Shown here in pieces: positions 1 to 58,091 of a stretch of 64,000 nucleotides of DNA; the first letter of the stretch is position 1, and each line of letters opens with the position of its first letter. The notes under the pieces are model-generated. The model worked only from the letters and a program-made list of their open reading frames with translations. It had not been told where the DNA came from and searched no databases. Location of the stretch: assembly GCA_030390025.1 (NCBI GenBank), contig CM059431.1:97466001-97530000 (forward strand), read 5' to 3'. The position numbers were made by a program, and so were the translations under genes. Origin of the DNA: Squalus acanthias (lineage: Eukaryota).

Positions 1-2236
1 CGAGGGCCGTGTCGACCACGGTAGAGGGGAATCCTCGGTTGAGGAAAAAGGAAGACATGTCGGAAGCACTGGTATGGAAGGTGGCATCATCAGAGCAGAT
101 GCGGCGGAGACGGAGAAACTGGGAGAATGGAATAGAGTCCTTACAGGAGGCGGGGTGGGAGGAAGTGTAGTCCAGGTAGCTGTGGGAGTCGGTGGGCTTG
201 TAGTGAATGTTAGTCAATAACCTATCCCCAGAGATGGAGATGGAGAAGTCGAGGAAGGGAAGAGAAGAGTCGGAGATGGACCATGTGAAGGTGAGGGAAG
301 GGTGGAAATTGGAAGCATAGTGAATGAAATGTTCTAGTTCAGGGCGAGAGCAGGAGACGGCACCGATACAGTCATCAATGTACCGGAAAAAGAGGTGAGG
401 GAGGGGACCCGAGTAGGACTGGAACAAAGAGTGTTCCACATATCCCACGAAAAGGCAGGCATAGCTAGGACCCATGCGGGTACCCATAGCAACACCTTTA
501 ATTTGGAGGAAATGGGTAGAGTCAAAGGAGAAGTTGTTCAATGTGAGAACAAGTTCAGCCAGGCGGAGGAGGGTGGTGGTGGATGGGGACTGGTTGGGCC
601 TCTGTTCAAGGAAGAAGCGGAGCGCCCTCAGGCCATCCTGGTGGGGAATGGAGGTGTAGAGGGATTGTACGTCCATAGTGAAGAGGAGACGGTTGGGGCC
701 GGGAAACTGGAAACTGTTAAAATGGCGGAGGGCATCGGAAGAGTCGCGGATGTAGGTGGGAAGAGACTGGACAAGGGGAGAAAAAATAGAGTCGAGATAG
801 GAAGAGATAAGTTCCGTGGGGCAAGAACAGGCTGAAACGATGGGTCTACCGGGGCAGTCCTGTTTGTGGATCTTGGGAAGGAGGTAGAAGCGGGCTGTGC
901 GGGGTTGGGGAACTATGAGGTTGGCGGCCGTGGGGGGAAGATCTCCAGAGGAGATGAGGTCAGTGACAGTCTTGGACACGGTGGCTTGATGTTCGGTAGT
1001 GGGGTCATGGTCCAGGTGGAGGTAGGAGGAGGTGTCAGAGAGTTGGCGTTCAACTTCCGCTAGGTAGAGGTCGGTTCGCCAAACAACAACAGCGCCACCC
1101 TTGTCAGCAGGTTTAATGACAATGTCAGGGTTGGATCGGAGAGAATGGAGTGCTGCAAGTTCAGAGGGAGGTAGGTTGGAGTGAGTGAGGGGAGCAGAGA
1201 AATTGAGCTGGCCGATGTCACGGCGGCAGTTAGCAATGAAAAGATCAAGAGAGGGTAAGAGGCCAGAGGGAGGGGTCCAGGTGGAACGAGAATTCTGAAA
1301 GCGGGAGAAAGGGTCAGCCGTGCGGGGGGAAGACTCCTGGCCAGAGAAGTGGGCACGGAGACGGAGGCGGCGGAAAAAGAGCTCAGCATCGTGCCGAGCT
1401 CGAAATTCATTGAGATGGGGGCGTAAGGGGATGAAGCTCAGGCCTTTGCTGAGGACTGATCGTTCGGAGTCAGAGAGGGGAAGGTCAGAGGGGATAGTGA
1501 AAACGCGGCAGGGGGTGAGATTGGGAGAAGGGGGGTCAGAGGAAAGTGAAGGGGAAGAAGGTTCCGGAGGGGCTTTAGTGTCCAAGAGTTGTTGAAGCTT
1601 GCGATCCTTGACATCGGAAAGGAAGAAGAAAAGTTTTTTGTTGAAGCGTCGGATGAGTCTAAGGATGAAATGGAACTGTGGACCCGGACAGCTTTGAGAT
1701 AGAGTGCGTCGGTGCTGCTGAAGAGAGATGTCGAGAGTGTTCATGTGGCGCCGCATGGCATTGAGCGTGGATCTCAAGATGCGGCGAGAGCAGTAGTTCG
1801 AGGAACGATGAATATCTTGGAGATATTTGTAATCCTGGGTGGATCCGAAACACGAAGGGTGGAAGTTTAGTTGGAATCCACGTGGGATAAGTCGGAACCG
1901 GAGACAGTTGCTGAGGAAAGTAATGTGGCTGTGAAACCGAGTCTTGGCAGATACCTGATCAAACACGAGAAGGGAAACTGAAATCAATGAAGATGAACAA
2001 GGTTGAAGAGCCAAACGGAAATCCCGTCGAAGAGAAGAGCAGAACTTCTTCAAGGTAGGCATTCCAAGAAGAGAGGTGGCAGTGAACCAAACACTAATAC
2101 GATAGCAAAATACTGCAGATGCTGGAAATCCGAAATAACAACAGAAAACGCTGGAAAAACTCAGCAGGCCAGGCAGCATCCGTGGAGAGAGAAAGAGAGT
2201 TGACGTTTCAGGTCGATGACCTTTCATCAGAACTGG
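1..2236 (-). mobile_element. Penelope-like retroelement, 5' two-thirds (pLTR, N-terminal domain, RT); continues beyond the window start; frame disrupted
   Basis: Minus strand from ATG at 2062 reads MPTLKKFC...HITFLSNCLRFRLIPRGFQL, the PLE N-terminal motif. LQIKGVAMGT lies near 480-510 and FRYIDD near 371-389. The pLTR with a hammerhead core is at 2100-2236. Confidence 0.9.
2198..2234 (-). ncRNA. Minimal type I hammerhead ribozyme in the Penelope pLTR
   Basis: Minus strand reads AGTT-CTGATGA-A-AGGTC(ATC)GACCT-GAAAC-GTC-AACT. This gives the CUGANGA and GAAA boxes, stem II AGGTC/GACCT, stem I AGTT/AACT and a palindromic minimal stem III. Confidence 0.8.
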
Positions 2237-3001
2237 GATTAAAGTTAACTACCTTAACGAGCCCACCAGAATTAAACAAAGCACTGGGAAGATTTGGCGG
2301 GCAAATAAGGAACAATCGAAGAGTATAACTTGAGACCTGTGCTGGAACAAGCCAGAGTTCTACAGAGGAGAGTTCCACAGAGATGAGACTGCAGAGACGA
2401 GACTGGCAGTTTTGCAGCCTAGCAGTTTAAAACAAGCTGTTCAAGTCACACAGACAGGCCACAAGCAGGACAGCTGAAGCACAGGAGTTCTCCAGTACAC
2501 AGTTCAACAGAAACAAGACCGTTCAACAAAGAAAGCCAGCAGCGCCAGAAACAGACCGACACGCAAGAAACCAGAGCAATGGTTCCAGTGACCATCAAAC
2601 ACCTCGAGGCACAAGGGCCTTATGAAACTTTTTACTTAAAAGGACTTTAAACCATATCTCAACTGTCAAAGGATTCATTTGGTGAGCCTTATCCCTGGTC
2701 CTCAAGAGTCTAACTTAGCTAGTAAAGTGGGGTTGGGAGGGGTGAGGTATTGTTCTACTGTCATTTCCCTCGTTTGTACCGAAGTTAAGATTGACATGTT
2801 ATGTTTCATCTCTGTTAAATAAACATTGGTTTTCCTCGCACCAATCCACGGGTCTGTTCGTTTGTCCTTATCGCCGCTCGATAAGTCCTGGGCTCAGAAC
2901 TAGGAAGGGGATAGCGATTCGCAACCGCACAGCGGGCAGGACAGTCCAGGAAAACATAACTGGCTGACCTACAAATAAGCCCGAGACAAAAACCCCTTAC
3001 A
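2237..3001 (+). mobile_element. LTR-like segment (5'-truncated by the Penelope element) that cuts off env of element A
   Basis: Non-coding, TATA-like sequence near 2323, AATAAA near 2818, ends in CCTTACA. It does not resemble the LTR of element A. Confidence 0.5.
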
Positions 3002-4794
3002 AGTGATAAACTGGGATGGGAGTTTCTCTCTTCGGAACTATGGGAAAGTATAAGACTAATCCCAACATAGTCAAGTTTGATCCTGATTTACATTCATGTC
3101 TTACAGGGTAGACTTGTATTAGCCCCCTGAATTCACACGTGGTGATATTACTATGATATTTGACCAGAGCATTTAGATACCGATCCTCTATCCAAGAGGG
3201 AATTTTACCTTCTTCAACCAATCTTAAATTCTCTCGTGCTTGTTCTACTAACCAGGATCCGTACATTATGCACACGTCGTTCTGTGCTGCCTCGGTAGAA
3301 GCATTTCTATCTTCTCTGAATATTGCATTTATTGTTGTGGTGAGAGATTCCAATTGTGTAACTACATCTTGTAAATGTACTTCATGATTTGATCTTCACT
3401 AAGTTCTCGATCCTGATTAGTATTTGTTTCTTGTAAAATTTTCTTGAGCTGTGCTCTCGTATCTTTAATTTGTTTATCCAAAGCGGCTAAATCTAAGCTA
3501 CTTACAAGTGATGTTCCTGTATTAAAGACGGTTGCTGCATCATTTACTAAGCTTCACCTCCCTCTACCATGAGTTTCTCTCCCCTTCGGGTTCCCATAGA
3601 TCTGGTCCTCGTGACAAGACCCATAACTATTACCATTTCTAGCCCAGAAATCATCAACAACTTGTTGCAACAGGTTTCCAAACAAGAGGGTGGTTTTTGG
3701 CTTACAAAATTCCGGTAACCCCATATTTGTTAAATTTATTATGACAGGCACTACCTCGTGATGGATCTTATGGTACAGGATCGTGCGTGTAGGAATAACG
3801 ACTAAACCGTTAGTCGGTCCCTCAGTATGGGTAGGGCAGGGGCTGTCTGGAGAGTGGAGGTTTTCAGGGACACTATCTTTGGGTTTAATTTGTACCTTCA
3901 GTCCTTGTGGATATATGGTATTGATACATTTATTTTCGTATACTGTCTCACATACATATATCCCCGCATCCTTTTGCCAAAAATTTCTCCAACAGAAAAT
4001 TTACATAAGAACATCAGACGTAGGAGCAGGTGTTGGTCATTTGGCCCCTCGAGCCTGCTCTGCCATTCAACAAGATCATGGCTGATCTGATCTTGGCCTC
4101 AACTCCACTTCCCAGCCCGCTTCCCATAACCCTTGACTCCCTTACCTTTCAAAAATCTGTCTATCTCCACCTTGAATATATTCAATGACCCAGCCTCCAC
4201 AGCTCTCTGGGGAAGAGAATTCCAAAGATTCACGACCCTCTGAGAGAAGAAATTCCTCCTCATTTCCGATATAAAAGGGTGTCCCCTTATTCTGAAATTA
4301 TGCCTCCTAGTTCTAGATTCCCCCACGAGGGGAAACATCCTCTCTGCATCTACCCTGTCAAGCCCCTCCAGAATCTTATATGTTTCAATAAGATCCCATC
4401 TCATTTGTTTCATTTCTCTCATGTAAGTGACCACCCCGGTTGTATTAAAATTAGTTTGTGTTTTATTGCTCACATCCTTTCTTAGGAATGTCTTATTGTT
4501 CGATTCACATTCGAGACAGAATCCATTATCTTCTTTCACATATATTACAGTAGCCTGTATGGACCCATTATAACATGCGTTGGCTTCCTCATCTGAAGTC
4601 TGATTACTGTTGGTACTGGTGTCGTGTTGATTCGTGCTCCATCCTCCATCTTTACTGATTATGTGAATTCTTTCGGATGGACCCTCTGTCCCACCCCTTT
4701 GAGTTATTGGACTGGGACCTATGTCGAATCCTTGACTGCAGATTACTACAGTGAATAGCTCAACCACTACTATCAACGACCACCACTTCTTCAT
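3002..4794 (-). pseudogene. env: env of element A: signal peptide, Ig-like segment, furin site, fusion-peptide-like segment and heptad region; interrupted and 3'-truncated
   Basis: Starts MKKWWSLIVVVELFTVVICSQG. RGR*SLVNDAATVFNTGTSLVSSLDL has a TGA that is plausibly CGA by CpG decay. CIMYGSWLVEQARENL...IPSWI aligns with env of element B. Confidence 0.85.
4003..4402 (-). mobile_element. CR1 LINE 3' fragment inserted in env A
   Basis: Encodes MRWDLIETYKIL...FFSQRVVNLWNSLP plus the CR1 3' tail. Flanked by ATTT at 3999-4002 and 4403-4406. Confidence 0.9.
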
Positions 4795-7700
4795 TGCACC
4801 TGCGGTACCGGAGTCTCTTCAGCTTCCTCTTCTTCTTCATCGAGGATCCAAGGCGTACTTCTGACCATGCACATGATGGTCCCAGTCTTCTTAGGCTGCT
4901 TCACCTGTGCTTCTGTAGGTCTAAGCTTCATTTGGTTAATATGAAACCATTTGACTTTTTTAGGCAATTGAACTGCATACACCATAGGACTTGCTTTATC
5001 TACTATACTGTACGGTCCCTTATACAGAGGTTCAAAAACTCCTGCTCTGGCGTAGTTTCTTACCATCACTCGGTCTCTGATGTCCCACTCCTGTGGTTTG
5101 GACGGAATCAACAGGAGCTTTAGATCTTGCCAATTTCAGGTGGCAGCATCCAAGTGAAGCTTTATCAGGGTTTCCCATAAATCTTTCAGGAACTTATCCC
5201 TGGTTACTTCCTTGATTTGCTTTTCGGTGAGACTGGGAAATAACAGATGGGCAGGGATCCGCATAGGTCTCCCTGTCACCAATTCATGTGGAGAATATCC
5301 CGTTTCCTTCGATTCCTTACTCCGGATTCCCATGAGGACCAGGGGAAGCACTTCATCCCATTTAGCATGCTGCTCATTCACTTCTTTTCTAAGGGCTAGT
5401 TTCAAGGTGCGGTTCATCCTCTCTACAATCCCAGATGACTGTGGGTTATGGGCCACAAGCCATTTCCTTTCAATTCCCAACATCTTCAGAGTGGCCTGCA
5501 TTACCTTCCCCGTGAAATGGCTTCCCTGATCTGATTCGACCACCTTCAGTAGTCCCCATCTGGAGAATACTTCCCTGACTAATGTTTTTGCTGTTCCCAA
5601 GGCTGTTGCTGATCTACAAGGGAAGGCCTCCACCCACTTGGTGAAATTGTCTACCAGGACTAAACAATATTTATTTCCCTTCTTGGTGGAGGGTAAGGGT
5701 CTGATAAAATCTATCTGACCGCACTGCCACGGCCCTTCAACACGCCGTGTGTGTCCCAGAGGAGCCTTTCTCTTGTGTGGATCCGGGTTGTTAGCGGCGC
5801 ATATTAGACATCTCTTACAAAAGCTCTCCCCATCCTCTCTGAGGTGCGGCCACCATCCCACTTCGTCTATTCTTTTCCAAGTGGTCTTGGGTCCTGGGTG
5901 TCCTGCCCCTGGGCCTCCATGCGCTAACTGAATAAACTCCTCCTGATACCCTTCCGGCACTATCCACTTGTCTTCTTTAAACAGCATTCCCTCCTTAATT
6001 TCTACCTCTCTGGCTCTGTACGGTCCTTCTACCTCTGACCCTTCCTCTTTCTTTTTTATGACTGCCTTCAGTAGCACATCTTTCAACTGAATAGTTTTAA
6101 GGTCGGGAGGGAGAGGCCCTGTATTTGAGGTATGAGTTGTGACATTCACTATCCCCGATTGATACGGGTTCCAGAAAACTCCTTTCTCTGCACCCTTCCT
6201 GGCCAATTCATCGGCCTTCTGATTACCCTCCCATCGAGTTTGCGTTTTTGAATGGGCTTTTACCTTATGGATGTAATAGGCGTGGCCTGTATCCTATACG
6301 GACGCTAAAATGGTGGCTAACATAGGAGCCGTGGTTAAGGGTTTTCTGTCTGCTGATGTGAACCCCCTTCTCGCTCAGATGGCTCGATGCTCAGTACAAG
6401 AATTACAGATGAACATCGACTCGGAACAGACGGTATACGGAGGGAGAAACTCAACAGGATGCGTGACCACATAGGTCACTGCGGCCAGTTCCGCCTGCTG
6501 GGCACTCAGTGGTGGGAAGGGATATTGCTACTTCAGTTCTCCTCGGTGGATCAGAAAGCCCGCAGCCCGTTTTCCGTTTTCCCCCCTCTACAAAGCTGGA
6601 GCCGTCGACATAAATATCTCGTCCCTCTGGATGGATCCCTGCTCTAAATCCTCCCTCAGTTTCCCAGACACCCTCTATAGTACACGTGTGGGGCTCTCCC
6701 GGGTAGTCGAGGTTAACCGTCAGCTTTGGATGAGTTATTCTTTTTGCCTCGATGCCCCTCTCTTGTAATAACAAAGTCCATCTCGCTATCCCAGCACTAG
6801 ATACCGTCCCTTCTTTGATTCTTCCGCCCAGCAGCAAGCGGATCGGAGTGTGGTGGGTCAGTAACACGAGAGCCTGGGTGCTGGTAAACACCGAAAAATG
6901 CTTCACCGCCCAGAAAGTCGGCAGCAGGTGGCGTTCGCAGCGGGAGAAACCCTTTTCCGCCCCTGGGTGCGATGCCACTGGTCGCAAGGGGCTGTTCGGT
7001 TCCTGCAAAAGGACTGCACTTAAACTGGCACCAGTGGCTGCGGCTTCCGAATAGAAGCCCTTGTTAGGGTCCACTGCTCCCAGAGCTGGGGTGGTCTGTA
7101 AGTCCATTTTCCGTTTAACAAACACCTCTTTGCACTTATCGTCCCATCCCCACTTCACTCCTTTCCTCAATAATCTCAGCAGGGGAGCCACAGTCGCAGC
7201 GTACTCATCTATGAACTCTCGACAGTATCCTGTCAGTCCCAAGAATGATCTGAGGGCTGCCTTTGAACTGCCTTTCTCTTTGCTTCATCTATTGCTCGCT
7301 CCCCAGGTCGAATAGTTAGTCCCAAGAACTGAACCTCCTTCTGTGCCTTCTTAGGATTTACTTTAAAGCCTGCTGTTCGGAGTAGCTCCAATAACTCCCC
7401 GTGCTCCTTCTCGCTCTCAGAGAGCAACAGCAAATCGTTTATGTACTGTATCAGTCGATCTGGATGACTGAAGTCCCGTAGACAATTCGCTATGCTCTGG
7501 TGGAAGATTGAGGGGCTATTATGGAACCCTTGTGGGAGACAGCTCCATGTGTATTGCTGTCCCTTAAAGGTGAAGGTGAATTTGTACTGATCCTCTGGAT
7601 GCAGAGGAATTGACCAGAAACCATTTGAAATGTCTAAAACTGTGAATACCCTGGCAGACCTCAGGGTGTTGCTAGTCAGATCCCCCACTGCAGCCACAGT

Positions 7701-9397
7701 AGGTGCACAAGCAGGGATATTCTTGTCCAGGACTCTATAGCCAATGGTCATTCGCCATGAACCGCCCGGTTTCCTAACCGGCCAAATAGGTGAATTCACA
7801 TCTGTAGCCAAGGGTCTCAAGACTCCCCGATCCAGCAAAGATGTCACCGCCTTTTCCAAGTCCCTCTCTGCCTCCTTTGGGAAGGTATATTGTTTCTGAG
7901 GTCGGGACATAGGCTCTCCTCCTATTCTAACCTGCACTCCCGTCACCCGTCCACAATCATGCTTATGAGTGGCGAAAGCTTCCCTGTTCTCTTCCACTAT
8001 CCGCCTATAACTTTCTGGGGTTCTACTCTTCAAAGTCCGCAGGTCATAGGGTCCCGCTGAGGTTGCCACCCACGCCTCTCCATGGTGAGGTGGGATAACC
8101 AATATTTCATCAGTTTTGTCCACTCCACCCCACAAACAGTTATTGTGCATATCTACAACTATATCGTGTGCCAGTAGCCAATCTGATCCCACTACTACCA
8201 TTCCTGGTTGATCCCAACGCATTAAAATACACGTCCACTTGGTTTGCAGTGACCCGACCTTAAATTTTAAGGGGGAGAAATTCAGTATCGCCCCATTTGG
8301 GGCGCAATTATCGGCCGGGTGAAAAGATTAGCGCCTGGCGCTAATTATCGCCACTGACTGGAAACTTCACTTTTAACGCCCCGGGAGGTGATTGGAGCGC
8401 TAAATCAGGCGCTGCACACCTGTCTTAAGGCGCAAAGGCCGAGGAGTGAGGCGCTAACTCAGAGCGCTGGCGAAGCTCATGTAATGTCAGTCAGCAATGG
8501 AACACACACACAATGGCACGGGCCAGTTCTTAAAGGGGATGGATAATCTTGCTTTCCATCCACATCCTGCTCATTGCAGCCTTGAATCTCGGCCTGGAGA
8601 GACCTGCACATCAAATCTGCTGGAAAGAACAATGGAGAGTACCAGGCAAAGAGCTCAGAGTGCAGCCCCCACAGTCTCTTCTAAATCGATACAAGGAATG
8701 GCAAATCAAAATGAACCTGCAAAGTGCTGCTCAGTACCCAAAACTCCTTCACACAACGTTGAATCTCTCCAGAAGTCTCTCTGACTCTCTCTCAGAATGC
8801 ATAGTTCAAAAATGGCACCAACAATAAAAGGCAGGAAGCGGTCACCTTTAAATAGCGCTCCCCCTTTCCCTTCATGACTGCAGAACGCTCCCCTCAACCT
8901 GTCGTTGCTAGCGTCAGGCGGTAAGGCAGGGGGCGCCACTCAATTTCCGCTCCGGGGCGTTACCGAGGCGTTGCGCACTCGACTGACGTCATGATCTGCC
9001 GGCGCAGGAGATCGTGGCGGTAGTGTTTAGCGCCGCCGCAAAATGTCTAGTTAATTTCGCGAGCGGTGCAAACTTCGCCGCGCCTGGGCGCTAGATGCTT
9101 TGCGCCCCATTAGCGCCCTCTTAAGGCGCTAACGGGAGGCGCAACCAACTGAATTTTTCCCCCTAAGGGTTTGGATACTGCCCCAGCCACTGATTTGCCT
9201 GAAAATCCTTTAAGTACATATAGTTTTCCGGTAGACCATGGGGAAGTGTTGGGAGCAACTGAGTTGACTACTGTACTTGAAGCTCCAGTATCTATTAAGT
9301 AATCCCCTTTCTTCCCCTCTACAACTACATTTACACATGGTCTATTGTACTCGTCGTACCGGAGTGGACACAGGTACTCGGGCTGGGCGCGGCCCCA
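4791..9397 (-). pseudogene. pol: pro-pol of element A (protease, RT, tether RNase H, RNase H, integrase), frameshifted
   Basis: Protease LIDTGASSTV; RT LPQGFHNSPSIF and YIND; tether CERHLL..FWAVKHF; second RNase H IYVDGS...KVKAH...GNQKADELA. Integrase shows H..H..CxxC, IDFI, SDQGSHF, PQSSGIVERMN and GPY. Confidence 0.92.
8271..9163. mobile_element. Non-autonomous PIF/Harbinger-type DNA transposon (MITE) inserted in the protease of element A
   Basis: TIRs GGGGGAGAAATTCAG / CTGAATTTTTCCCCC with a TAA target duplication. Removing it restores the protease frame SKPLKFKVGSL. Confidence 0.88.
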
Positions 9398-11053
9398 TCA
9401 CGCTTGTTCATTGAGCGGCCCCTCACAAGTGGACCTTGCCTTCCTGGTGGGCCTTTTGTTCTTTCATAAATTTGGCTACACATTCCACTAGTTCCTTATA
9501 ACTAGGGCCACTTGGCTCGGAGATGTTCACCCGTTTACTTCCTCCTTCTCGCTCCCTTTTAGGCCTCCTACATTCTCTTACAAAATGGCCCCTTCCTCTA
9601 CAATTATGACAAACCCTTTCATTCATCCCCAGGGCAGGCTTGAAGGGTTTACCCTCCTGCTGCCATTTCCTGGGGGTTCCCCCTTTCATTTCGCACACCT
9701 TCCCTTTGGGCTGACCCACTTCCCGCTTCTCATCTTGACAGGACTCGAATAACCTAGTCATTTTCCGTAACACCTTCTCCTCAGTGTGCTCATCATTGGG
9801 ATCGGACCAGTTTTCCATATGAGCCCTTATATCAGACAAACTATGGCCAGTCAGGGTCCTTAACCGATGATTCAATCCCTTTCCTTCTCATTTTTCTCTC
9901 AGGATCTCTCCCCCTCAGGTTTCATTGTACACTACCCAGAGTCCATCAGCAAACTGCCTCGGCCATTCTTTCGGGCCTTGGGTGGTCAATTCTATCTTTT
10001 GAAAAGGATTTCCTACTTCGGCCCCCAATAATTTCCGTAATTCGCCCACCAATTCCCTCCAGTCTGATTTGCCATTCCTATGGGCCTTCGGGAGTCCCCC
10101 ATAAACGTCAGGTTCTAACGTGAACAATAACAGTCTTTTCTTTTCTTCCTTACTGCAATTTGCCATCGAGGCATGTTGCTCTACTATCATTAGATGGTTT
10201 TCTATCTCTCCTCCCCTACTCAATTTTCCTATTTCCTTCGCTAAACTTTTAAGATCGGTTAGGGAGTACTCCTGATGGTACTGCCTTTCTTCCTCCAGAC
10301 CTCCGTCCCCGGCTGTGTCATACTTATACTTAGTGGTACGGAGGGACACATTCTCCCATCCTCCCTTTCCGTGGTTGCATACGCCAGGGGTCTCCAATGT
10401 TCCCCAGGCGGTCCATAGTCTAACTCCTCTTCCTCATCGCTTACACACTCCAGTGCCATCGCACAGACTATCCCCTTTTTGGCAGACAGTTTCCCCTCTA
10501 ATTCCTTAATTCTTCTTTCACATTCTACATGACTTTCTTTCCCCTTCTTTTCTAGAGCAGACTGGTGGGCCACTCTCACTGCTGCTTTCAAGTCCTCATT
10601 CTGCCTTTCGGCCTTGTCTGCTCTCTCCTTTTGTCTGGACACTTCCTGTTCCCATCTATCACTCAGCTTCTGCCCTTCTAGGTATAGAATTTCAGTGAGC
10701 TGCCGCTCCCTTTCACGCTCCCAGTTTTCTCTTTCCTCACTCAGTTCTTTTAACAATCTGTCGACCACCGCCTCCCGATCGCTAGCCCTTGCATTGTTTT
10801 CCTCGATCTTTTTCCTTAACCGGATCTTTTCACATTCATAATTTTTAAATTGTCTCTGGTATGCCATGAGCCAGACAGCTTTTAGTAAACCAAAGCAGCA
10901 GGTAGTACCCTGCGGCCACTGTTCAGCTTCACAGACTGGATCTTCCCCGTCTACGATCACCCGAACCCAACCTTCTTTCAAAAGTAGCTTCCCTGCTATA
11001 TACTTAGTTATTAGTTCATCCATAGCTTTCTTCTTTGGATTTGGGTGTTTCAT
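9398..11053 (-). pseudogene. gag: gag of element A (three frame-shifted pieces)
   Basis: ORFs 10259-11053 (long coiled coil), 9915-10397 (capsid-like) and 9423-9875 (zinc knuckle CHNCRGRGHFVREC), lying between the PBS and protease. Confidence 0.85.
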
Positions 11054-11074
11054 CTTATTTTCCCTTTACGCAGG

Positions 11075-11091
11075 TCCTACCGCGGTCGCCA
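11075..11091 (-). promoter_or_regulatory. Primer-binding site of element A (tRNA uncertain; partial resemblance to tRNA-Arg or tRNA-Ser 3' ends)
   Basis: TGGCGACCGCGGTAGGA begins 1 nt after the LTR end GGCTTACA. Confidence 0.7.
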
Positions 11092-11092
11092 T

Positions 11093-11912
11093 TGTAAGCC
11101 TCGCTGTCCTATTCTCAGGCTTGTAGTTCGGTTTGACCCGTGAATTACAAGGGGAATAATTAATGAATCACCCAAAAGCTCTTGTTAAATAAGGTCGTTT
11201 ATTAAAGGAAAAGAAGTGAGAAAACAAAACAAAAAACGCTTATAGATTGAAATGGCAATACAATGCCCTTCCTAGCCTACCTGGCAATACAATGCCCTTC
11301 TTACTCTACTCTTAGCAATAAAGATGCTCTAGCAATACAATGCCCAAATATGTTTTTAAGTAAATGGTCGTACAATCACCCCGAAGTGGCCAGCTCCTGT
11401 TGATTGCAGCTCTCCTCTCGGCTCCCTTCTTGTTGGCTGTAGCTCTTCTTCCGACCACCCCCGACTGCAGTAACGAAGTTACCTTAACAGCTTCTTTTAT
11501 ATATTTTCCTTTCAATGGTGGACAGGATGTTACATCGCCAAGGCCTCATTGACCTATCGATGATAGCCTTAGATCATGATAGCCAATAATATGTTGCAGT
11601 TTTTGTTTAAACTTAAAGTTAAAGCCAGCATGTGAAGACCACAGTAACAGTTAATTGGCTGGATAGCTCACGCAAATCTCAACCGTCTAGCTGGCAAACT
11701 TTCTGATCAGGATTATTTAGTGAAGAGGCCCACCAAATTCTGTGTTATCTCATCAAGGCCTAATCCTTCATTGTTTACCCAGACGTCTCCTTTAGCTACA
11801 CTTTGTTCCTTATTGATAGCATGTCTGGTTTCACTGCTTTGCTACAGCTCTTGCAAGTTTTAATGTCCAGCTTGAAAATTGTGTCAAAAGAAAAAGGCTT
11901 CTCTTCCTTACA
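11093..11912 (-). repeat. 5' LTR of element A
   Basis: Inverted termini TGTAAG/CTTACA, minus-strand TATA near 11497 and AATAAA near 11200, directly abutting the PBS. Confidence 0.78.
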
Positions 11913-12489
11913 GGTCCACCAGCTGCCACATGCTCCAGCTGCAACACAACACCTGTCCTGCCATCTCTATTGTATTTTATTTAACTAATTAGGTTTTCAA
12001 GTTTTGAAATACTCAATTGTCTATTAATAGTTTTTAATCTAGGTAATAACCTTGTTTAATTTATTACAGTTAGTTATATGCTTTAGGTCTTTACTGTAAC
12101 TTAGCACACAGTCCTAATTTAACCCTAGTTGTTTATATTTTTTTAATGTATCAAGCAGCACCTCTTACCCCCACCTCACTGAATTCCCGAGATTAGTAGT
12201 CTGTAGAAGCAGGACTCCATAGAACTGGACTCCGTGCTACTTACCACCGTGCGTTAGCAAAAGTCTCTTTTATTTTATACCAGCAGAAATTCCAAAGCCC
12301 TGAGTCAGCCCCTGCTGACAGTAATTACCAGGTAGCCCGTTCTAGCTAGCCACCTCATTAACTGTGCAACTGCCACTAGCAGGCAGCTTGTTTACCGCTG
12401 TGAAAGAAACTACAGGTTAAGGTTAAAGTTAAGTTAAATGCCAAATATTAACTGCAAAACTTTACTAAATTTTAGAAAGAGATCAACTC
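11913..12489 (-). mobile_element. 5' UTR and ORF1 start of an older CR1 into which element A inserted
   Basis: From ATG at 11964 the minus strand reads MAGQVLCCSWSMWQLVD, homologous to CR1 ORF1 MAGQPSPVLCSSCSMWE at 16042. Confidence 0.6.
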
Positions 12490-15103
12490 TTAAAATTCCC
12501 TCAACCTCTCCTCGTATGTCCACCCCCTCATCCCCGGAATTAACCGAGTGAACCTTCTTTGTACTGCCTCGAGAGCAAGTATGTCTTTTCTTAAGTATGG
12601 ACACCAAAACTGTATGCAGTACTCCAGGTGCGGTCTCACCAATACTCTATACAACTGCAGCAATACCTCCCTGTTTTTATAATCTATCCCCCTAGCAATA
12701 AAAGCCAACATTCCATTGGCTTTCTTGATCACCTGCTGCACCTGCATACTAACTTTTTGATTTTCTTGCACCAAGACCCCCAGATCCCTTTGTACTGCAG
12801 TACTTTCCAGTTTCTCGCCATTAAGATAATAACTTGCTCTCTGATTTTTCCTGCCAAAGTGCATAACCTCACATTTTCCAATACTGTATTGCATCTGCCA
12901 AATCTCTGCCCACTCACCCAGCCTGTCTATATCCCCTTGTAGGTTTTTTATGTCCTCCTCACTCTCTACTTTCCCTCCCATCTTTGTATCATCTGCAAAC
13001 TTTGATATGTTACACTCGGTCCCCTCCTCCAAATCGTTAATATAGATTGTAAAGAGTTGGGGACCCAGCACCGACCCCTGCGGAACACCACTGGCTACTG
13101 GTTGCCAGTCCGAGAATGAACCATTTATCCCAACTCTCTGCTTCCTGTTAGATAACCAATCCTCCACCCATGCCAGAATATTACCCCCAATCCAGTGATT
13201 TTTTATCTTGAGTAATAATCTTTTATGTGACACCTTGTCGAATGCCTTCTGGAAGTCTAAATACACTATGTCCACTGGTTCCCCTTTATCCACCCTGTAC
13301 ATTATATCCTCAAAGAACTCGAGCAAATTTGTTAGACATGACTTCCCCTTCATAAAGCCATGCTGACTTTGTCCTATTAAATTATGTTTATCTAAATGTT
13401 CCGTTACTGTCTCCTTAATAATAGACTCCAAAATTTTACCCACCACAGATGTTAGGCTAACTGGTCTATAATTTCCAGCCTTCTGCCTACAACCCTTTTT
13501 AAATAAGGGTGTTACATTAGCAGTTTTCCAATCTGCCGGGACCTTTGCTGAGTTCAGGGAGTTTTGGAAAATTATTACCAAAGCATCCACAATTCCTACT
13601 GCCACTTCCCTCAAGACACTAGGATGTAAGCCATCAGGTCCAGGGGATTTATCCGCCTTGAGTCCCATTATTTTACTGAGTACCAATTCCTTAGTGATTT
13701 TAATCGTATTTAGCTCCTCCCCCACTAGAGCCCCCTGTTTGTCCAGTGTTGGGATATTCTTAGTGTCCTCTACCGTAAAGACTGAAACAAAATATTTGTT
13801 CAGCATTTTTGCCATCTCCATGTTTCCCACCATTAATTTCCCGGTCTCATCCTCTAAGGGACCTACGTTTGCCTTAACCACCCTTTTTCTTTTTATATAA
13901 CTATAGAAACTCTTGCTATCTGTTTTTATATTTTTTGCTAATTTATTTTCATAGTCTATTTTCCCTTTCTTAATCAATCCTTTAGTTACTTTTTGTTGTC
14001 TTTTGAAGACTTCCCAATCTTCTATCCTCCCACTAACTTTGGATACCTTATATGTCCTTGTTTTTAGTTGGATACTTTCTTTAATTTCTTTACTTAACCA
14101 TGGATGGCTGTCATTTCTTTTACACCCTTTTTTCCTCAGTGGAATATATTTATTTTGAAAGTTGTAAAATAACTCCTTGAATGAACACCACTGCTCATGT
14201 ACCGTCTTAACCTTTAATCTATTTTCCCAGTCCACTTTAATCAATTCTGCTCTCATGCCATCATAGTCTCCTTTATTCAAGCTCAGTATGCTTGTATGAG
14301 AACCAACCTTCTCACCCTCTAATTGGATATGGAATTCAACCATGTTATGGTCACTCATTCCAAGGGGATCCTTAACTAGGACATTATTAATTAATCCAGA
14401 CTCATTACACAGTACCAGGTCCAAGGTTGCTTGCCCCCTTGTAGGATCAGTTACATACTGCTCAAGAAATCCATCCCTAAGACACTCAATAAACTCTTCC
14501 TCAAGGCTGCCCTGCCCAATTTGATTTGTCCAGTTAATATGATAGTTAAAATCCCCCATAATTATAGCTGTTCCCTTATTACATGCCCCAACTATTTCCT
14601 GATTAATACTTCTTCCAACAGAGTTGCAACTATTAGGAGACCTATATACTACGCCCACCAGTGTTTTTTTCCCCTTATTATTCCTTATCTCTACCCAAAC
14701 TGTTTCATTATCCTGATCTTTTGACCCAATATCATTTCTCTGTATTACAGTGATTCCTTCCTTTATTAACATAGCCACCTCCCCCCCCTCCCCTTCCTTC
14801 CTGCCTGTCCTTCCTGATTGTTAAATACCCTGGCATATTTAATTCCCAGACGTTGTCACCCTGCAGCCATGTTTCTGTAATGGCCACAAGATCATATCCA
14901 TACATAGTTATTTGTGCCGTTAACTCATCAATTTTGTTACGAATGCTACGTGCATTCAGATAAAGAACGTTCAAATGTGTTTTGCGACACTTACTTCCTG
15001 CTTTTTCCTTATTTAACACTTTACCTTTTACTCCATACCTTCTGTCCCTTCCTGACATGCTTTCCTCTGTCTCCCTGCTCAGGTTCCCAACCCCCTGCCA
15101 CAT
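12490..15103 (-). pseudogene. CR1 ORF2 (APE endonuclease and RT), one frameshift near 14780
   Basis: [44 protein letters not shown] and FADD; 762 aa remain open. Confidence 0.93.
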
Positions 15104-16042
15104 TAGTTTAAATCCTCCCCAACAGCACTAGCAAACACTCCCCCTAGGACAGCGGTCCCAGCCCTGCCCAGGTGCAGACCGTCCGGTTTGTACTGGTCCC
15201 ACCTCCCCCAGAACCGGTTCCAATGTCCCAGGAATTTGAATCCCTCCCCCTTGCACCATTCCTCTAGCCACGTAGTCATTTGAAATATCCTCCTATTTCT
15301 ACTCTGACTAGCACGTGGCACTGGTAGCAATCCTGAGATTACTACCTTTGAGGTCCTATTTTTTAATTTACCTCCTAACTCCCTATATTCTGCTTTTAGG
15401 ACCTCATCCCCTTTTTTACCTATATCGTTGGTGCCTATGTGCACCACGACAGCTGGCTGTTCGCCCTCCCCCTCCAAAATGTTCTGTAGCCGCTCCGAGA
15501 CGTCCTTGACCCTTGCACCAGGGAGGCAACACACCATCCTGGAGTCTCGGTTGCGGCCGCAGAAACGCCTACCTATTCCCCTTACAATTGAGTCCCCTAT
15601 CACTATAGCTCTTCCACTCTTTTTCCTCCCAGCCTGTGCAGCAGAGCCGCCCATGGTGCCAGGAAGTTGGCTGCTGCTGCCTTCCCCTAAGTCATCCCCC
15701 CCAACAGTATCCAAAGCGGTATATCTGTTTGAGAGGGGGATGGCCACAGGGGACCCCTGCACTACCTGCCTGCACCTCCTACTCTACCTGGTGGTCACCC
15801 ATTCCCTGTACACCCTTCACCTGCGGTGTGACCAACTCACTAAACGTGCTATCCACGAGGTTCTCAGCATCGCGAGTGCTCCAATATGCATCCAGCCGCA
15901 GCTCCAGCGCCGCAATGCAGGCTGTCAGTAGCTGCAGCTGGATACACGTCCCGCACACATGGTCGTCAGGGACACCGGAAGGGTCCCTGATTTCCCACAT
16001 AGAGCAGGAGGAGCACAACACGGGGCTGGGCTGTCCTGCCAT
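15103..16042 (-). pseudogene. CR1 ORF1 (zinc finger/leucine zipper plus SGNH esterase), frameshift near 15770
   Basis: CSSC...CGTC followed by a heptad segment; GDS, GTND and DGLH esterase blocks. Confidence 0.9.
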
Positions 16043-19469: not shown

Positions 19470-19586
19470 ACATAGAAACATAGAAACTAGGAGCAGGAGT
19501 AGGCCATTCGGCCCGTCGAGCCTGCTCCACCATTCAATACGATCATGGCTGATCATCCAAATCCAGTACCCTGTCCCTGCTTTCTC
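19470..19586 (-). mobile_element. CR1 3' tail
   Basis: (ACATAGAA)n followed by GGAGCAGGAGTAGGCCATTCGGCCC. Confidence 0.8.
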
Positions 19587-29879: not shown

Positions 29880-32800
29880 GTCATTTACATCGAGTACAAT
29901 ATTCAAACATAAGTATGGTGACAATTAGCAACTGCACCACCACCAATACATGAGATGTAATTCTGATCCAGGGGTGAATGTCCACCCTAATACCCCAGTC
30001 CCAAAGTGTCTGCCAGCATGAGGCATCTTCCAGCTTGGCCTCCACATCCTTCCCCAGTTGTTTGACCTCCTGCTCAATTCGGTGATACTGCTTAATTATC
30101 GCCCCGGCCTCTTTCCTCAGTTCCAGTAGGTGTTCTGGTAGTTTCGGGATGTCATTCCCCTCAGGGAGTACATTATTCGAGCATGCTGTCCTTTAGGTCC
30201 TCAGTTGGACTCGCCCGTTCCTCGTGGGATGACCATCGGTAGGTTATGGTTGCATGTCCGATCGTTGTTGGGGCCTGGGGGCAGAAGCAGAAACTTGAGC
30301 TGGTCACTGGGCACCGGATGTTACCATACTGGTATTGGGATTCACTGGTGGTCACACAGTATTCTCCTTTTCCCCGGTGTGCTGCTTGCATTGACTCATG
30401 GTGGGCACTGGAAATTTCAAGGGTACAATTTAGGGTGGTGTTGAAGCCGTGAAAGGATATTTACTAGTCCTAGCCCCTTTAGGGCTACCCCGGATCAGGC
30501 GTATATCTCAGACGTTCACTTTCAACTAAAGTTTGAGGTAGCCGAATCCTAAAGACTCTTAATTGGGTCTGAAGGTCCGGGCTATCTCTTCCTAAAGCAA
30601 AGGAACAACCCGAGAATGTTACCGTCCTCCAGATAGTGCTTCTAATAAGTTTAGCTAGACTGTAACATCCCGGATATTATGAGGGTTCGGAAACCTCCCT
30701 CAGAATTCTGTAACTCTTCACCAAAGAGTGTACAGAGATTTAGTTTGCGAGTTTTTGATACAGAAGACTTATGTGAGACAATTCTAAAAATATATAGAGA
30801 TTTATTAAAGAACCGACATGCAATTTACAGTTGGTGAATCAGTCAATCGCAACATTAACAATTCTAAAAAGAGAAAAAATACCATCTTATTATTAACAGG
30901 GAATCTTACTTTTAAATCTTAACTTCGCTACAGTATTACTGTTCTTAAAGTTTTCTATACAGGATATCCATCAATATCAAATACCTTTGATCCCCGAGGT
31001 ACAAAGAGTGGTAGACCACAGAGCTGCCTCTGTAGCCAAGAATCGCTTTGCTCGATTAAAGCGAGTCTGATATCCCATTTGAAACTTCAATATTTATACC
31101 CTTTTCCAGTGGTATTTCCTTTAAAGTTTCTGCTGATGCAAGTTAATTATCCCTATTCATCTTTCTGCCGACCTCTGCAATTCTTAATGCTACATCAGCC
31201 AGAATCTTGTCTCATCTCCAGGTGTTCTAGGGTCACCATATAAAACGGTGTGAAAGGCAGGCGTTCCTTATTTTGTCATCTTTACAAGGGCAGATGTTCC
31301 TTATCTTATGTGCCATATTTACGAAGTTTAAATTAGAACACCTTATCCAGGGTGAACCATTGTTTTTGTTCCCAAAGGTCAGCCTGTCAGAGCCGTGCAC
31401 CTTCAGTTTCAATAAGGTTATTTATTCAGGGTCAACAACTGTCTTATCTCAATAGCCAGAATTCTTTCATAGCTATTTCATAGTTAGGTTTCTAAATTTC
31501 CAAACCCAGTTTGTCATGTTTTAATAAGGCCAGAATTCTTTCATAAGATAGTGTGTTTTTCTGAATAGGTTATATGGCTTATTCCTTCACAGCTTCACAT
31601 GGCTCCTGGCCCTGTCCCCACAGGATGTGGGCAGACTACGTTACTCCCCCTTTCTCTGCATCTCTCTAACAAGATCCCCGTCAAGAAGGAACCTTTCTGG
31701 GTTGCATAAGTGGGTGCGTGGTGGTACCTGAGCCAATTGCCATCTCTTATGATCCTGACATTCTCTACCTCGTAGAGGGGCTTGGATACCCTTTTCTGCA
31801 GACTGGGTATAGCTATCAGCCTCAGGTGAGTGGTAACACAATGTGTAGTTGTCGGGTAGACCTTTATAAGTCCTCGTAGGGTGCACAAAGAGCAACTGCC
31901 GCTCTCTGGCGCCCAGTCTTGCAGTGCGCTATCCATAATCCAATCCGGCACATCTCTATTGTGGAGCTGTGCTAGATTATGTCGCACCTCCCCCACTAGC
32001 CATGCCCCATAGGCCACGCACATTCGTTCCCTAGAGGCCTGATTGGTTACGTTATGCAGGGTGGCGGTGACGTGGTTAACTGTATGGGCATGGCTTTTCC
32101 AAAACTTGCACTTACTCTAATAGGGTTTTAGCCAAGTCTTTTCCAGTCTGTCCCTGATGTCCCTCCAAATTATTTGCCTTTAACATGAGGTCCCTTAGTT
32201 TGGATGTTAAATGATTCACCTTGCTATCGATTTCTGCTATATCCAGGGAATTAACTGTGGATGCCCCTGCACTGTAAGCAGTGGCTATGTCATTTACCAG
32301 GTTCCTCTTGCGGCGAGATAGGCTCGACCGCACGCGTCCCCCAGAGGCCCGGAGGGCATCAGTAACTATCATGTCGAGGAGCCGATGGTAAAACGACCTT
32401 GTACGCCATTCGCAACATTTGGGTAACCCCATCTGGCTAATATTGAGGACAACCAAACCTATCTCATGGTGTACATTCTCAAATAAGCACCTATCAGAAT
32501 CTCGGATCACGAGCCCCCCTTTGGGTCCCGAGCTATGCTGCGGACACCTCAAGGGTTCCTCCGTAGTCAAAGTGGTGGGCTTCAGGGCTCCTGTTACTGG
32601 GGTGGTCGGTGTGGTGGTGGGAGTATCCCGGGGGTTCAGCTTCCAACACCAATCATCAGAGTTGGTGCACTTGGAGGTTGGGCATAGTTCCCACCCTCCT
32701 TCTTCCTGCTGGGGTACCCCGGACATCTGAGTGAAATCTCTCCCACATCTTACTTGCATAGTTTCTCCCTGTACGCATGTTAATGTATCATCACTCTTCT

Positions 32801-33080
32801 TCCCGAAGCATACCGTGCTCATGTTTGTCCATTTAACAGCCATCCCCGTGTTACCCCTATCCCCTGTATCACCTGGCTTCTTGTCAAATATGCTTACACC
32901 CGTTAACCCGGAGCTACAATTTAAATACACTGTTTTATCAACTGTGACAGTTAACACCACACGTTCCCGATCGCAACTGATGTCGCTTGAGTTCTTGTAA
33001 TACAGGCCTCGTTGCTCCCTTCGGTCGACTGATGTGGCTCCTTCTGTGGTTGCCGTGGCCAGGCATATCAGTAAGGTCAT
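29880..33080 (-). pseudogene. env: env of element B, split by a solo LTR
   Basis: Signal-like start MTLLICLATATTEG, a Thr/Pro-rich stalk, RRKR/NLVNDIATAYSAGASTVNSLDI, a heptad region, and Cys-rich NVVCP...GFN...NC...YCVTT...FCFCP. A TM-like HVLVVVQLLIVTILMF lies near 29900-29955. Confidence 0.88.
30449..31591 (-). mobile_element. Probable solo LTR inserted in env B
   Basis: Interrupts env between ..EPC and GFN.., with inverted termini GTGAA/TTCAC, minus-strand AATAAA near 30800 and TATA near 31095. TSD unclear. Confidence 0.65.
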
Positions 33081-33179
33081 CCGTATTTGAGTCCTGTAGA
33101 GGGAGATAAACAGTGGACGCCGGTCGTCACCGGTTTAGTCCTTATTATTTACTGTGCTTTCGAATTTCTTAAGTTGCAT

Positions 33180-43489: not shown

Positions 43490-43960
43490 AACTTAGGAAC
43501 ACAGGAACAGGAGGAGGCCCTTCAGCCCCTCAAGCCTGTTCCGCCATTCACTGAGATCATGGCTGATCTGTATCTTAACTCCAGCCACCCACCTTGTTTC
43601 CGTAACCCTTACCACCCTTACCCAACAAAAATCTATCGACCTCACTCGAGATTTTCAGTTGATTCCCAGCCTCAACAGCTTTATGGGGGAGAGAGTTCCA
43701 AATTTCCACTGCCCTCTGAGTGAAGAAGTGCTTCCTGACATCACCCCTGAACGGCCCTGGCTCTAATTTTAAGGTTATGCCCCCTTGTTCTGGACTCCCC
43801 CCACCAGAGGAAATAGTTTCTCTCTCTCTCCCCCATCAACTCCTTTAATCATCTTAAACACCTCGATCAGATCACCCCTTAATCTTCTACACTCGAGGGA
43901 ATACAAGCCCAGTCTGTGCAACCTGTCCTCGGAATTTAACCCTTTTAGCCCCAGTATCAT
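43490..43960 (-). mobile_element. CR1 3' fragment
   Basis: LGLYSLECRRLRGDLIEVFK plus the 3' tail. Confidence 0.85.
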
Positions 43961-47126: not shown

Positions 47127-48390
47127 TAAGTGTGTCCGCTTCCACCACTTCCGTCGGCAGCGAGTTTCAGGTCCTCACCACTCACTGCGTAAAAAAGTTT
47201 TTCCTCACATCCCCCCCTGTATCTCTTGCCCAAAACCTGAAATCTGTGTCCACTAGTCCTTGTACCATCAACTAGTGGGAACAGCCTTTCCCCGTCTAGC
47301 CTATCCAAACCCGTCATAATCTTGTACACCTCTATCAAATCACCCCTCAACCTCCTTTGCTCTAATGAAAACAAATCCAGCTTCTCCAACCTGTTATTGT
47401 AGCTAAGATCCCCCATCCCCGGAACCATTCTGGTAAATCTCCTCTGCACCCTCTCAAGGGCCTTCACATCCTTCCTAAAGTGTGGTGACCAGAACTGGAC
47501 GCAATACTCCAGTTGTGGCCTAACCAGCGCTTTATAAAGGTTCAGCATAACTTCTCTACTTTTGTACTGAATACCTCTACTTATGAAGCCCAAGGTCCCA
47601 TATGCTTTGCTAACCACTCTCTCAATATGTCCTGCCACCTTCAGGGACCTATGCACATTAACTCCCAGGTCCCTCTGTCCCTGCACACTCTTTAAAACTG
47701 TGCCATTAAGTGTATATTGCCTCTCCCTGTTCCTTCTGCCAAAATGCATCACCTCACACTTCTCTGTATTAAATTCCATCTGCCACTTGTCTGCCCATTC
47801 TGCTAGCCTTTCTATGTCCTGTTGCAGTTGATTGGTATCATCCTCACTGTTGGCCACACCCCCAAGTTTGATGTCATCGACAAATTTAGAAATTCTACTC
47901 CGTATTCCAATATCCAGGTCATTTATATTAATTTAGACTAGTAATAAAAACAGCAGAGCACTCCCAGCATCCATCACACTCTCAAATAGGGAAACATAGA
48001 AGATAGGAGCAGGAGTAGGCCATTCGGCCCCTCGAGCCTGTTCTGCCATTTAATGAGATCATGGCTGATCATCCAAATTCAGTACCCAGTCCCTGCTTTC
48101 TCCCCATATCCCTTGATCCCTTTAGCCTTAAGAAATATATCTAACTCCTTCTTGAATATATTTAATGAATTGGCCTCAACTGCCTTCTGTGGTAGAGAAT
48201 TCCACAGGTTCACCACTCGGTGAAGAAATTCCTCCTCTCTGTCCTAAATGGCTTACCCCTTATCCTTAGACTGTGACCCCTGGTTCTGGACTCCCCCGCC
48301 ATCGGGAACATCCTTCCTGCATCTAGTCTGTCTAGTCCTGTTAGAATTTTATAAGTTTCCATGAGATCCCCTCTCATTCTTCTAAACTCT
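47127..48390 (-). mobile_element. Two CR1 3' fragments (47127-47925, 47990-48390)
   Basis: WQMEFNTEKC, RPQLEYCVQFW and a 3' tail. Confidence 0.88.
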
Positions 48391-58010: not shown

Positions 58011-58091
58011 ACACAGATTCCTGTGAGACACCACTTGTCACATTCTGCCAATTTCCCTCCTCTCCATCTCTACTGCAATTACTACAGCGCC

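Follow-up and report, generated by a model that had tools for sequence, protein, structure and literature searches.

A candidate immunoglobulin-like module at the N-terminus of F-type retroviral envelopes in cartilaginous fishes

The window analysed here, a stretch of 64,000 nucleotides from Squalus acanthias (GenBank assembly GCA_030390025.1, contig CM059431.1, positions 97,466,001 to 97,530,000), carries on its minus strand a provirus, element A, whose envelope gene (env) is split by a long interspersed nuclear element (LINE). The LINE lies within a module of ~110 residues that comes after the signal peptide and before the F2-like part of the envelope protein (Env). We read this module as a genuine V/I-type immunoglobulin (Ig)-like sandwich that forms the standing N-terminal module of the F2-equivalent surface subunit of an Env of the type of the paramyxovirus fusion protein (F), where it would serve for attachment, and we give this reading, which leans on predicted structures, a probability of roughly 0.6. 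The fold by itself is the firmer part, as a motif register, a seven-strand sandwich in the AlphaFold2 (AF2) model and Ig-only structural neighbours together make it likely that the interrupted domain has a real Ig-like fold. F-type Envs are already known in vertebrate retroelements; what appears to be new, going by the literature searched, is the N-terminal Ig-like module on such an Env. The argument draws on the following features of the element A env, where ORF stands for open reading frame.

2997..4794, minus strand: env remnant of element A, with its ATG at 4794-4792, delimited by tblastn of paralog and relative env ORFs
4729..4794, minus strand: predicted signal peptide MKKWWSLIVVVELFTVVICSQG, its hydrophobic core judged by eye
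4403..4593, minus strand: N-terminal half of the Ig-like domain, strands A'-B-C-D, located with profile A1, strands taken from the AF2 model of the paralog L032
4507..4518, minus strand: CLEC, the CxxC on predicted strand B, with its second Cys at the canonical Ig B-strand position
4003..4402, minus strand, in env orientation: 5'-truncated LINE copy comprising the last ~100 codons of ORF2 and the 3' untranslated region, from blastn against paralogs and the shared ORF2 tail
3999..4002 and 4403-4406, minus strand: target-site duplication AAAT (ATTT on the plus strand), from the sequence and blastn
3842..4002, minus strand: C-terminal half of the Ig-like domain, strands E-F-G, IFCWRNFWQKDAGIYVC ... 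GLKVQIKPK, located with profile A1
3950..3970, minus strand: DAGIYVC, the F-strand D-x-G-x-Y-x-C, from translation
3557..3841, minus strand: F2-like segment (CPTHTEGPTNGLVVIP...LPEFC...), ending at the polybasic cleavage site, from paralogs and the model of the relative P0012
3000..3553, minus strand: fusion peptide (SLVNDAATVFNTGTSLV...), heptad repeat A (HRA) and the first part of the head, spread over two frames, from paralogs and helices H286-391 in the P0012 model

The original prediction, made from the letters of the window alone, held that excising 4003-4402 together with one ATTT copy restores a continuous reading frame through the domain. This proved exact. When window positions 3900-4500 were compared by blastn with paralogous copies, the 400 bases 4003-4402 were absent in 8/8 paralogous loci (L032, L034, L033, L041, L035, L038, L039 and L036, at 8 distinct genomic places), both flanks aligned in all eight, and the two flank blocks either abutted or overlapped by 2-4 bases. 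The paralogs read ...REMKQIFCWRNFWQKD[AV]GIYVC... unbroken across the insertion site. L032 has an uninterrupted open frame of 237 aa ('...TYAREMKQIFCWRNFWQKDVGIYVCETVYKNKCINTIYPQGLKVQIKLKE...', continuing ...TYAREMKQIFCWRNFWQKDVGIYVCETVYKNKC...GLKVQIKLKE) and L034 one of 284 aa ('...RERKHIFCWRNFWQKDVGIYVCETV...'). Because these natural copies are uninterrupted, the read-through is the real ancestral state, and it can be seen without joining the two halves of the window. The insert, which the original prediction named a CR1, is the 3' end of a LINE, with CR1 as a putative clade: its frame gives the C-terminal ORF2 tail that is also read in an RVT_1 ORF at 56147-58069 (MR.DLIET.KIL.GLD..DA.RMFP.VG..RTR.H...), and the target duplication is present. 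Placed on the AF2 model of L032, the insert would sit at the start of strand E of the Ig-like domain.

The textbook Ig pattern reads L-x-I-x-N-V-x-x-x-D-x-G-x-Y-x-C over strands E and F, preceded upstream by v-x-v-x-e-G-x-x-v-t-L-x-C. In the window, F-C-W-R-N-F-W-Q-K-D-A-G-I-Y-V-C stands in register with the first of these, V-x-V-K-E-G-x-x-[IF]-C-L-x-C matches strands A'-B of the second, and a strand G, ...L-K-V-x-I-K-P-K, comes after the F-strand motif. The N-terminal half additionally contains an upstream Cys, VIYVKEDNGFCLEC, and 4 N-glycosylation sequons in 62 residues. By itself the D.G.Y.C motif is weak, with 1 occurrence in the 127,996 six-frame positions of the window vs 0.2 expected from composition; it is conservation that gives it weight. 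The core V-x-V-x-E-G-x-x-[IF]-C-x-x-C ... C-W-x-x-[FW]-W ... G-[IV]-Y-x-C recurs across seven or more divergent env subfamilies in the Squalus genome. The two signatures on which the domain had first been proposed, DAGIYVC at 3950-3970 and VYVKE...L-x-C as the A'/B strands upstream of it, both fit this register, and a check of the other copies for the two cysteines and the F-strand motif found them widely kept: CxxC or CxC in 31/34 ORFs covering strand B, and [DENHT]xGxYxC in 27/31 ORFs covering strands E-F, with the first position of the latter varying among D, N and H across the other subfamilies.

An alignment of 19 domain sequences from at least seven subfamilies (A1), which are 20-37% identical to family A, gives the same picture. 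Positions C27, C67, W68, Y79 and C81 are invariant, and C30, W72 and G77 are kept in at least 90% of the sequences, while loops and linker vary strongly from one subfamily to the next. The canonical B- and F-strand cysteine positions are thus conserved, as C30 (at least 90%) and C81 (invariant in the 19 sequences), and from these positions a bond between them would be expected. Each half of the split window domain finds its own part of the profile: positions 2-67 of A1 align to residues 76-137 of ORF 4102-4818 (E 5.8e-16) and positions 70-131 to residues 2-53 of ORF 3557-4000 (E 7.4e-18). A canonical C-strand Trp, whose lack had been held against the domain from the start, is indeed missing from family A (TFLRKD), as it is from L044, L067 and L012; the worry it raised is eased by its presence in L010 (VIWFVK), L018/L029/L028 (VWFL), L074 (RWWLRK) and P0012 (IQWRWF).

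The CxxC on strand B deserves separate mention. In gamma-type retroviral surface subunits (SU) the CXXC is a thiol-exchange motif. For the module described here a structural role is more likely, since the two cysteines would lie on opposite faces of a beta strand, each with a conserved partner. While the second would occupy the canonical B-strand position, the first CxxC Cys and the Cys of the 'CW' on strand E face away from the core on the neighbouring strands B and E, going by the AF2-based strands, and these two probably form a second disulfide.

For structure prediction, the intact natural copy L032 was modelled in AF2 with alignment A1. The resulting model has seven strands (residues 14-20, 26-31, 36-41, 55-60, 63-68, 77-83 and 96-102), with a mean predicted local distance difference test score (pLDDT) of 67.1 and a predicted template modelling score (pTM) of 0.59. 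Searched against the PDB with Foldseek, the domain model gave 199 matches at E<=0.001, and among the matches listed are antibody and T-cell receptor V domains, catfish NITR10, carp CD8alpha and BTLA, at TMq 0.49-0.61. A second structural aligner, VIA-align, run against 48,161 representative chains, returned 28 matches at Z>=8, the best being BTLA (Z 9.2, root-mean-square deviation 2.6 Å over 87 residues), and nearly all of the 50 matches listed are domains of the Ig superfamily (IgSF), of V-, I- and C2-type. As a lead only, the top ESM Atlas match scored 0.94 with 171 shared features, in a cluster that is 84% V-set. The sandwich that structure prediction was meant to reveal is therefore present in the model, with IgSF domains as its neighbours, and together with the motif register this supports the Ig-like domain originally proposed for the Env of element A.

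Downstream of the module, the Env would be an F-type fusogen, as had also been proposed. Profile A3, built from env ORFs of the Squalus genome including the window pieces, retrieved 48 of 1.84 billion proteins at E<=0.001, Chiloscyllium P0012 among them with E 1.5e-35. The matches include Envs of full length (673-749 residues) from Chiloscyllium (P0012) and Mustelus and from the frogs Pelodytes, Mantella (a 16-member cluster) and Bombina. The AF2 model of full-length P0012 has pLDDT mostly 83-94 over residues 180-600, including 83-91 for the segment that corresponds to the F2-like segment, and its Foldseek matches (238 at E<=0.001, from E 1.4e-10) are headed by the F proteins of human parainfluenza virus 3 (hPIV3), respiratory syncytial virus (RSV), Newcastle disease virus (NDV), Langya virus, human metapneumovirus and Nipah virus. 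The predicted structure shows the three-domain head and both heptad repeats, HRA and HRB, and at the level of this predicted fold the fusogen is like paramyxovirus and pneumovirus F. In the paralogs a polybasic cleavage site is directly followed by a hydrophobic fusion peptide (GRGRR/SLVNDAATVFNTGTSLV, with the slash marking cleavage).

Several observations count against the reading of an Ig-like module on an F-type Env, and they fall on both of its parts. No curated Ig profile was matched above threshold by any of the family A copies and relatives tested, and Pfam gave no match on the two window halves or on two intact family A copies (the latter at E<=10). The check for a curated Ig profile match therefore came out negative; the best match was Ig_3 on P0016 (E 0.0085, 17 bits vs a cut-off of 30), followed by V-set on P0029 (E 0.045, 14.4 bits vs a cut-off of 26), and sub-threshold matches on L010 (Ig_3 0.023, V-set 0.079) and L044 (Ig_4 0.34). 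Against PDB sequences, the 17 matches of profile A1 are each insignificant singly, and phmmer with L032 and L074 gave nothing useful there. The domain model is of middling confidence, with 57/118 residues at pLDDT 70-90 and none at or above 90, and a VIA-align Z of 8-9 barely exceeds the level reached by unmatched models. Furthermore, AF2, Foldseek, the language model and the profiles are not fully independent and may share a DxGxYxC-type cue, and the C-strand Trp is, as said, absent from family A itself. In the full-length P0012 model, N-terminal residues 9-178 have pLDDT below 50, leaving the Ig-like domain unplaced on the trimer. On the side of the fusogen, Pfam PF00523 (Fusion_gly) was matched by none of 7 env ORFs at E<=10 and none of 19 relatives at E<=0.1, and the F-part profile A2 found no F among PDB sequences, only coiled coils (paramyxovirus phosphoprotein and designed bundles). 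Sequence methods thus miss F, and so the F-likeness rests on the fold. Finally, the module is family-wide for cartilaginous fishes only. The N-terminal region of the frog Env looks Ig-like by eye (…VVIEC…LRWIF…LERNITLVQDGMVAC…), profile A1 did not match the N-terminal domains of the amphibian relatives, and the Pelodytes domain has Ig-clan Atlas neighbours at just 0.82-0.84.

Taken at their strongest, the missing profile matches, the low pLDDT (67 for the domain alone, below 50 within P0012) and a D.G.Y.C count only about fivefold over expectation would mean that the region is not an Ig domain at all, but a Cys-rich stretch of viral glycoprotein with a chance DxGxYxC-like string that the predictor and the fold searches have over-read. 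We regard this as improbable. A chance string would not be expected to bring with it the full register from A' to G, in which V-x-V-x-E-G, L-x-C, Trp (in four subfamilies), an L-x-I-x-N-like stretch, D/E-x-G-x-Y-x-C and an ELK-type G strand follow one another and are retained at 20-37% identity. Moreover, weak as they are, the PDB sequence matches of A1 (E 0.033-0.96) are IgSF proteins in 17/17 cases and in the same register, among them JAML, CD79b, DCC, DSCAM, NCAM2, CRTAM, CD8a, ROBO1 and contactin-4, and the two distinct structural aligners return almost exclusively Ig domains. The UniRef name of the full-length relative P0012, 'Ig-like domain-containing protein', suggests that another profile library recognises the Ig-like domain of that protein.

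The order of parts in the intact relatives shows how an Ig-like module could act on an F-type core. The signal peptide is followed by ~55 poorly conserved residues, the Ig-like domain, a short or long Cys-rich linker and the F2-like segment, and then by a furin site, the fusion peptide, HRA, the head domains, HRB and a membrane anchor. Upon furin cleavage, the Ig-like domain would remain tethered to the fusion subunit via F2, and on the trimer it would be exposed and glycosylated. From its position, and by analogy, it may carry out receptor attachment, the role that a separate HN, H or G protein has in paramyxoviruses. Comparable arrangements on the same scaffold would be the N-terminal modules of the coronavirus spike and the inserted receptor-binding domain (RBD) of the foamy-virus Env.

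The same Ig-like fold could serve another role, as a glycan-covered cap, as an immune-evasion or decoy module, or as a clamp on the prefusion trimer, with the F-type core itself attaching, as the core of pneumovirus F is able to do. The four sequons within 62 residues and the variability of loops and linker between subfamilies would suit such a role, as would the viral proteins that come closest in structure to the domain model (16 matches at E<=0.001), namely poxvirus haemagglutinin, herpesvirus vIgFam and adenovirus E3 CR1, immune-modulating Ig-like proteins of these viruses. However, a retrovirus that has only one glycoprotein must accommodate attachment somewhere, and in gammaretroviruses the attachment module is N-terminal, variable and exposed. 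Likewise, class I proteins usually attach via their N-terminal, most variable and exposed module, as described for coronaviruses in the consulted part of PMC11468914. Present data do not separate shielding, decoy or clamp from attachment, which for its part is argued by analogy; we consider the former group unlikely and prefer an attachment role for the module. It also differs from these neighbours in context: the pox-, herpes- and adenovirus glycoproteins are stand-alone membrane proteins outside any fusion protein, and the 50 viral matches listed for the domain model include none of the fusion proteins of RNA viruses or retroviruses.

The distribution of the module bears on where it came from. 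F-type env is very abundant in the Squalus genome. For the C-terminal half and F2 region at least 150 matches were scored (150 scored, from 6375 and 4724 candidates at first look), and for the N-terminal half 17. A search with the divergent copy L044 gave 43 matches, all env-like, and added further subfamilies; the census of the L010 subfamily comes from the match table alone. The Ig-like domain stands at the same place in every env subfamily examined, with the exception of a second env in the window, env B:

30320-33134, minus strand: env B, which shares the F2/F1 block with element A

Profile A1 found no match in env B of the window. As the original prediction had it, the Ig-like domain of element A comes after the signal peptide and before the block that element A and env B have in common. 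The Cys-rich N-terminal region of env B itself (…VTVDKTVYLNCSS…DDTLTCVQG…) may be a degenerate or a different module.

Beyond Squalus, the domain is also present in Env proteins of the skate Rhinoraja and of the sharks Pristiophorus, Chiloscyllium and Scyliorhinus. This distribution contradicts the proposal of a recent capture, by element A, of a host Ig exon that was then joined to the fusogen. The likeness of the domain to host IgSF V/I domains and the lack of a detectable copy in env B would fit such an event, but the same domain occurs at the same place in at least seven Squalus env subfamilies and in the Envs of the four other genera, and we regard a capture by element A as highly improbable. 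The genome and library searches surfaced env copies only: at E<=1e-3 no host IgSF donor was found in the genome search (43 matches) or in the 1.84-billion library (48 proteins). The homologous-protein search gave 5 matches with L074, all from cartilaginous fishes and none with an env-related Pfam annotation, 2 matches with A4, and, as weak evidence on a donor, none with A1 among longer proteins at E<=1. Judged from these sequences, the module appears to be old and to belong to the whole env lineage in cartilaginous fishes, and its host origin, if any, would lie deep in the history of that lineage.

Some of the relatives are of interest in their own right. P0012 (Chiloscyllium punctatum, 739 aa) and P0067 (Scyliorhinus torazame, 754 aa) are intact, full-length F-type env ORFs that are 86% identical over 99% of their length, a likeness that suggests domestication, with the env gene kept in both of these shark orders, or else a recent spread between them. 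In Squalus, L074 (C3274:319491-322835) has an open env frame of 627 aa that is 76% identical to an 'uncharacterized protein' of Rhinoraja longicauda (P0001), which is high given the distance between the hosts. Env fragments are also present in two gene models of Pristiophorus japonicus, P0004 and P0005 ('Niban 1-like' and 'zinc finger protein ZFP2-like'), and in the ZFP2-like model the Ig-like domain comes after nine C2H2 fingers; both models are probably chimeric annotation.

The window copy from which this analysis started belongs to a damaged provirus, set out here with the remaining LINE features of the window.

2250-11100, minus strand: gag-pro-pol-env provirus (element A), from translations and Pfam
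5136..11065, minus strand: gag-pro-pol of element A, with Pfam zf-CCHC, RVP, RVT_1, RT_RNaseH, Integrase_H2C2 and rve
2-2248: LINE ORF with RVT_1, from Pfam, downstream of the env truncation point
19470-19554, 43503-43839, 47993-48375, 56086-56442 and 59940-60336: further copies of a LINE 3' end, at 70-81% identity

Next to the Pfam RT_RNaseH match, a second RNase H-like stretch can be recognised by eye in the pol of element A (…YVDGSS… / …HSKTQ…GNQKADELA). The env gene in the window is dead. It carries four lesions: the LINE insert, a stop codon at 3554-3556, a frame change near 3362-3395 and the loss of everything beyond ~3000, where the alignments of paralog and relative env ORFs in tblastn stop at 3000. 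The stop codon falls inside the polybasic cleavage site, where GRGR is followed by the stop, against GRGRR in the paralogs. The 3' part of the provirus is missing, and a gapless direct-repeat search of window 1-16000 found no pair of long terminal repeats for element A. The five further copies in the window belong to the same LINE 3' end that splits env, and one of them is the tail of the 641-aa RVT_1 ORF at 56147-58069. The interest thus lies in the env family, and the dead window copy is of none.

The closest known counterparts in architecture are the lokiretroviruses, vertebrate retroelements with an F-type Env (main texts of PMC7947760 and PMC9040795). Like the lokiretrovirus Env as described in the main text of PMC7947760, the shark Env belongs to a gag-pol-env element and has a signal peptide, an RXKR-type cleavage site, a fusion peptide, a coiled coil and a membrane anchor. 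Set beside lokiretroviruses, the shark elements show two RNase H-like regions (one by eye) and, via P0012, an F-type fold. The scheme of the lokiretrovirus Env in that main text comprises only a signal peptide, a fusion peptide, a coiled coil and a transmembrane (TM) segment, with no N-terminal domain, and the lokiretrovirus Env matched PF00523 at 2.2e-7, whereas the shark Envs have no PF00523 match and do have an N-terminal Ig-like domain (PMC7947760, main text). In the main text of PMC7947760, supplements being outside the scope of the count, the words 'immunoglobulin', 'receptor', 'N-terminal', 'shark', 'cartilaginous' and 'Chondrichthyes' occur 0 times each, and cartilaginous fishes go unmentioned as hosts in the main texts of both lokiretrovirus papers (PMC7947760, PMC9040795).

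With the F proteins of paramyxoviruses and pneumoviruses (hPIV3 F 1ztm, RSV F 3rki and NDV F 3maw), the shark Env shares the predicted fold, over P0012 residues ~180-600, and the order F2, furin site, fusion peptide, HRA, head, HRB and TM. Unlike in paramyxovirus F, where F2 comes directly after the signal peptide and attachment falls to a separate protein, 130-280 extra residues that include the Ig-like domain precede F2 in the shark Envs. The gammaretroviral SU offers another comparison: its RBD, which binds the receptor, is an N-terminal beta-sandwich module of the surface subunit. This RBD is carried by a gamma-type TM subunit and is without a DxGxYxC or canonical IgSF signature, in contrast to the shark module on its F-type core. 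The F scaffold is known to accept receptor-binding modules either N-terminally, as in the coronavirus spike, or between subunits, as in foamy virus (PMC11468914, in the part consulted). The foamy virus Env ('class Ib'), on the same partial source, is a retroviral Env on the F scaffold with its own receptor-binding module, which parallels the role that we infer for the shark module (PMC11468914). The two modules differ in that the foamy virus RBD has its own fold and lies inside domain III before the furin site, according to that part of PMC11468914, whereas the shark module is N-terminal and Ig-like.

A search of the full-text literature, with subscription journals and supplements outside its scope, found no account of an F-type retroviral Env that bears an Ig-like domain, nor is one present in the portions available of PMC13709493, the eLife/bioRxiv errantivirus paper and the zebrafish BHIKHARI preprint. 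The claim that the arrangement had gone undescribed stands within these limits, with the automatic UniRef name of P0012 as the one flag on the domain. The module in the shark Envs suggests that published domain maps of F-type retroviral envelopes miss the N-terminal third.

The question that these findings address is how a machinery for fusion that in paramyxoviruses depends on a separate attachment protein functions alone in retroviruses, and a conserved, glycosylated and presumably exposed Ig-like module before F2 would be a concrete and testable answer. Cartilaginous fishes are at the same time added as hosts of retroelements with F-type env. A wider reading, possible but in our view doubtful, is that an IgSF V/I domain, derived from a host surface protein hundreds of millions of years ago, is the ancestral receptor-binding module of a whole clade of vertebrate retroviral Envs on the F scaffold, that is, of cartilaginous fishes and perhaps of amphibians and lokiretroviruses at large. 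If true, this would account for entry without an HN, H or G partner, and it would constitute a third route, besides the coronavirus S1 and the foamy-virus insert, by which the F scaffold became self-sufficient for entry.

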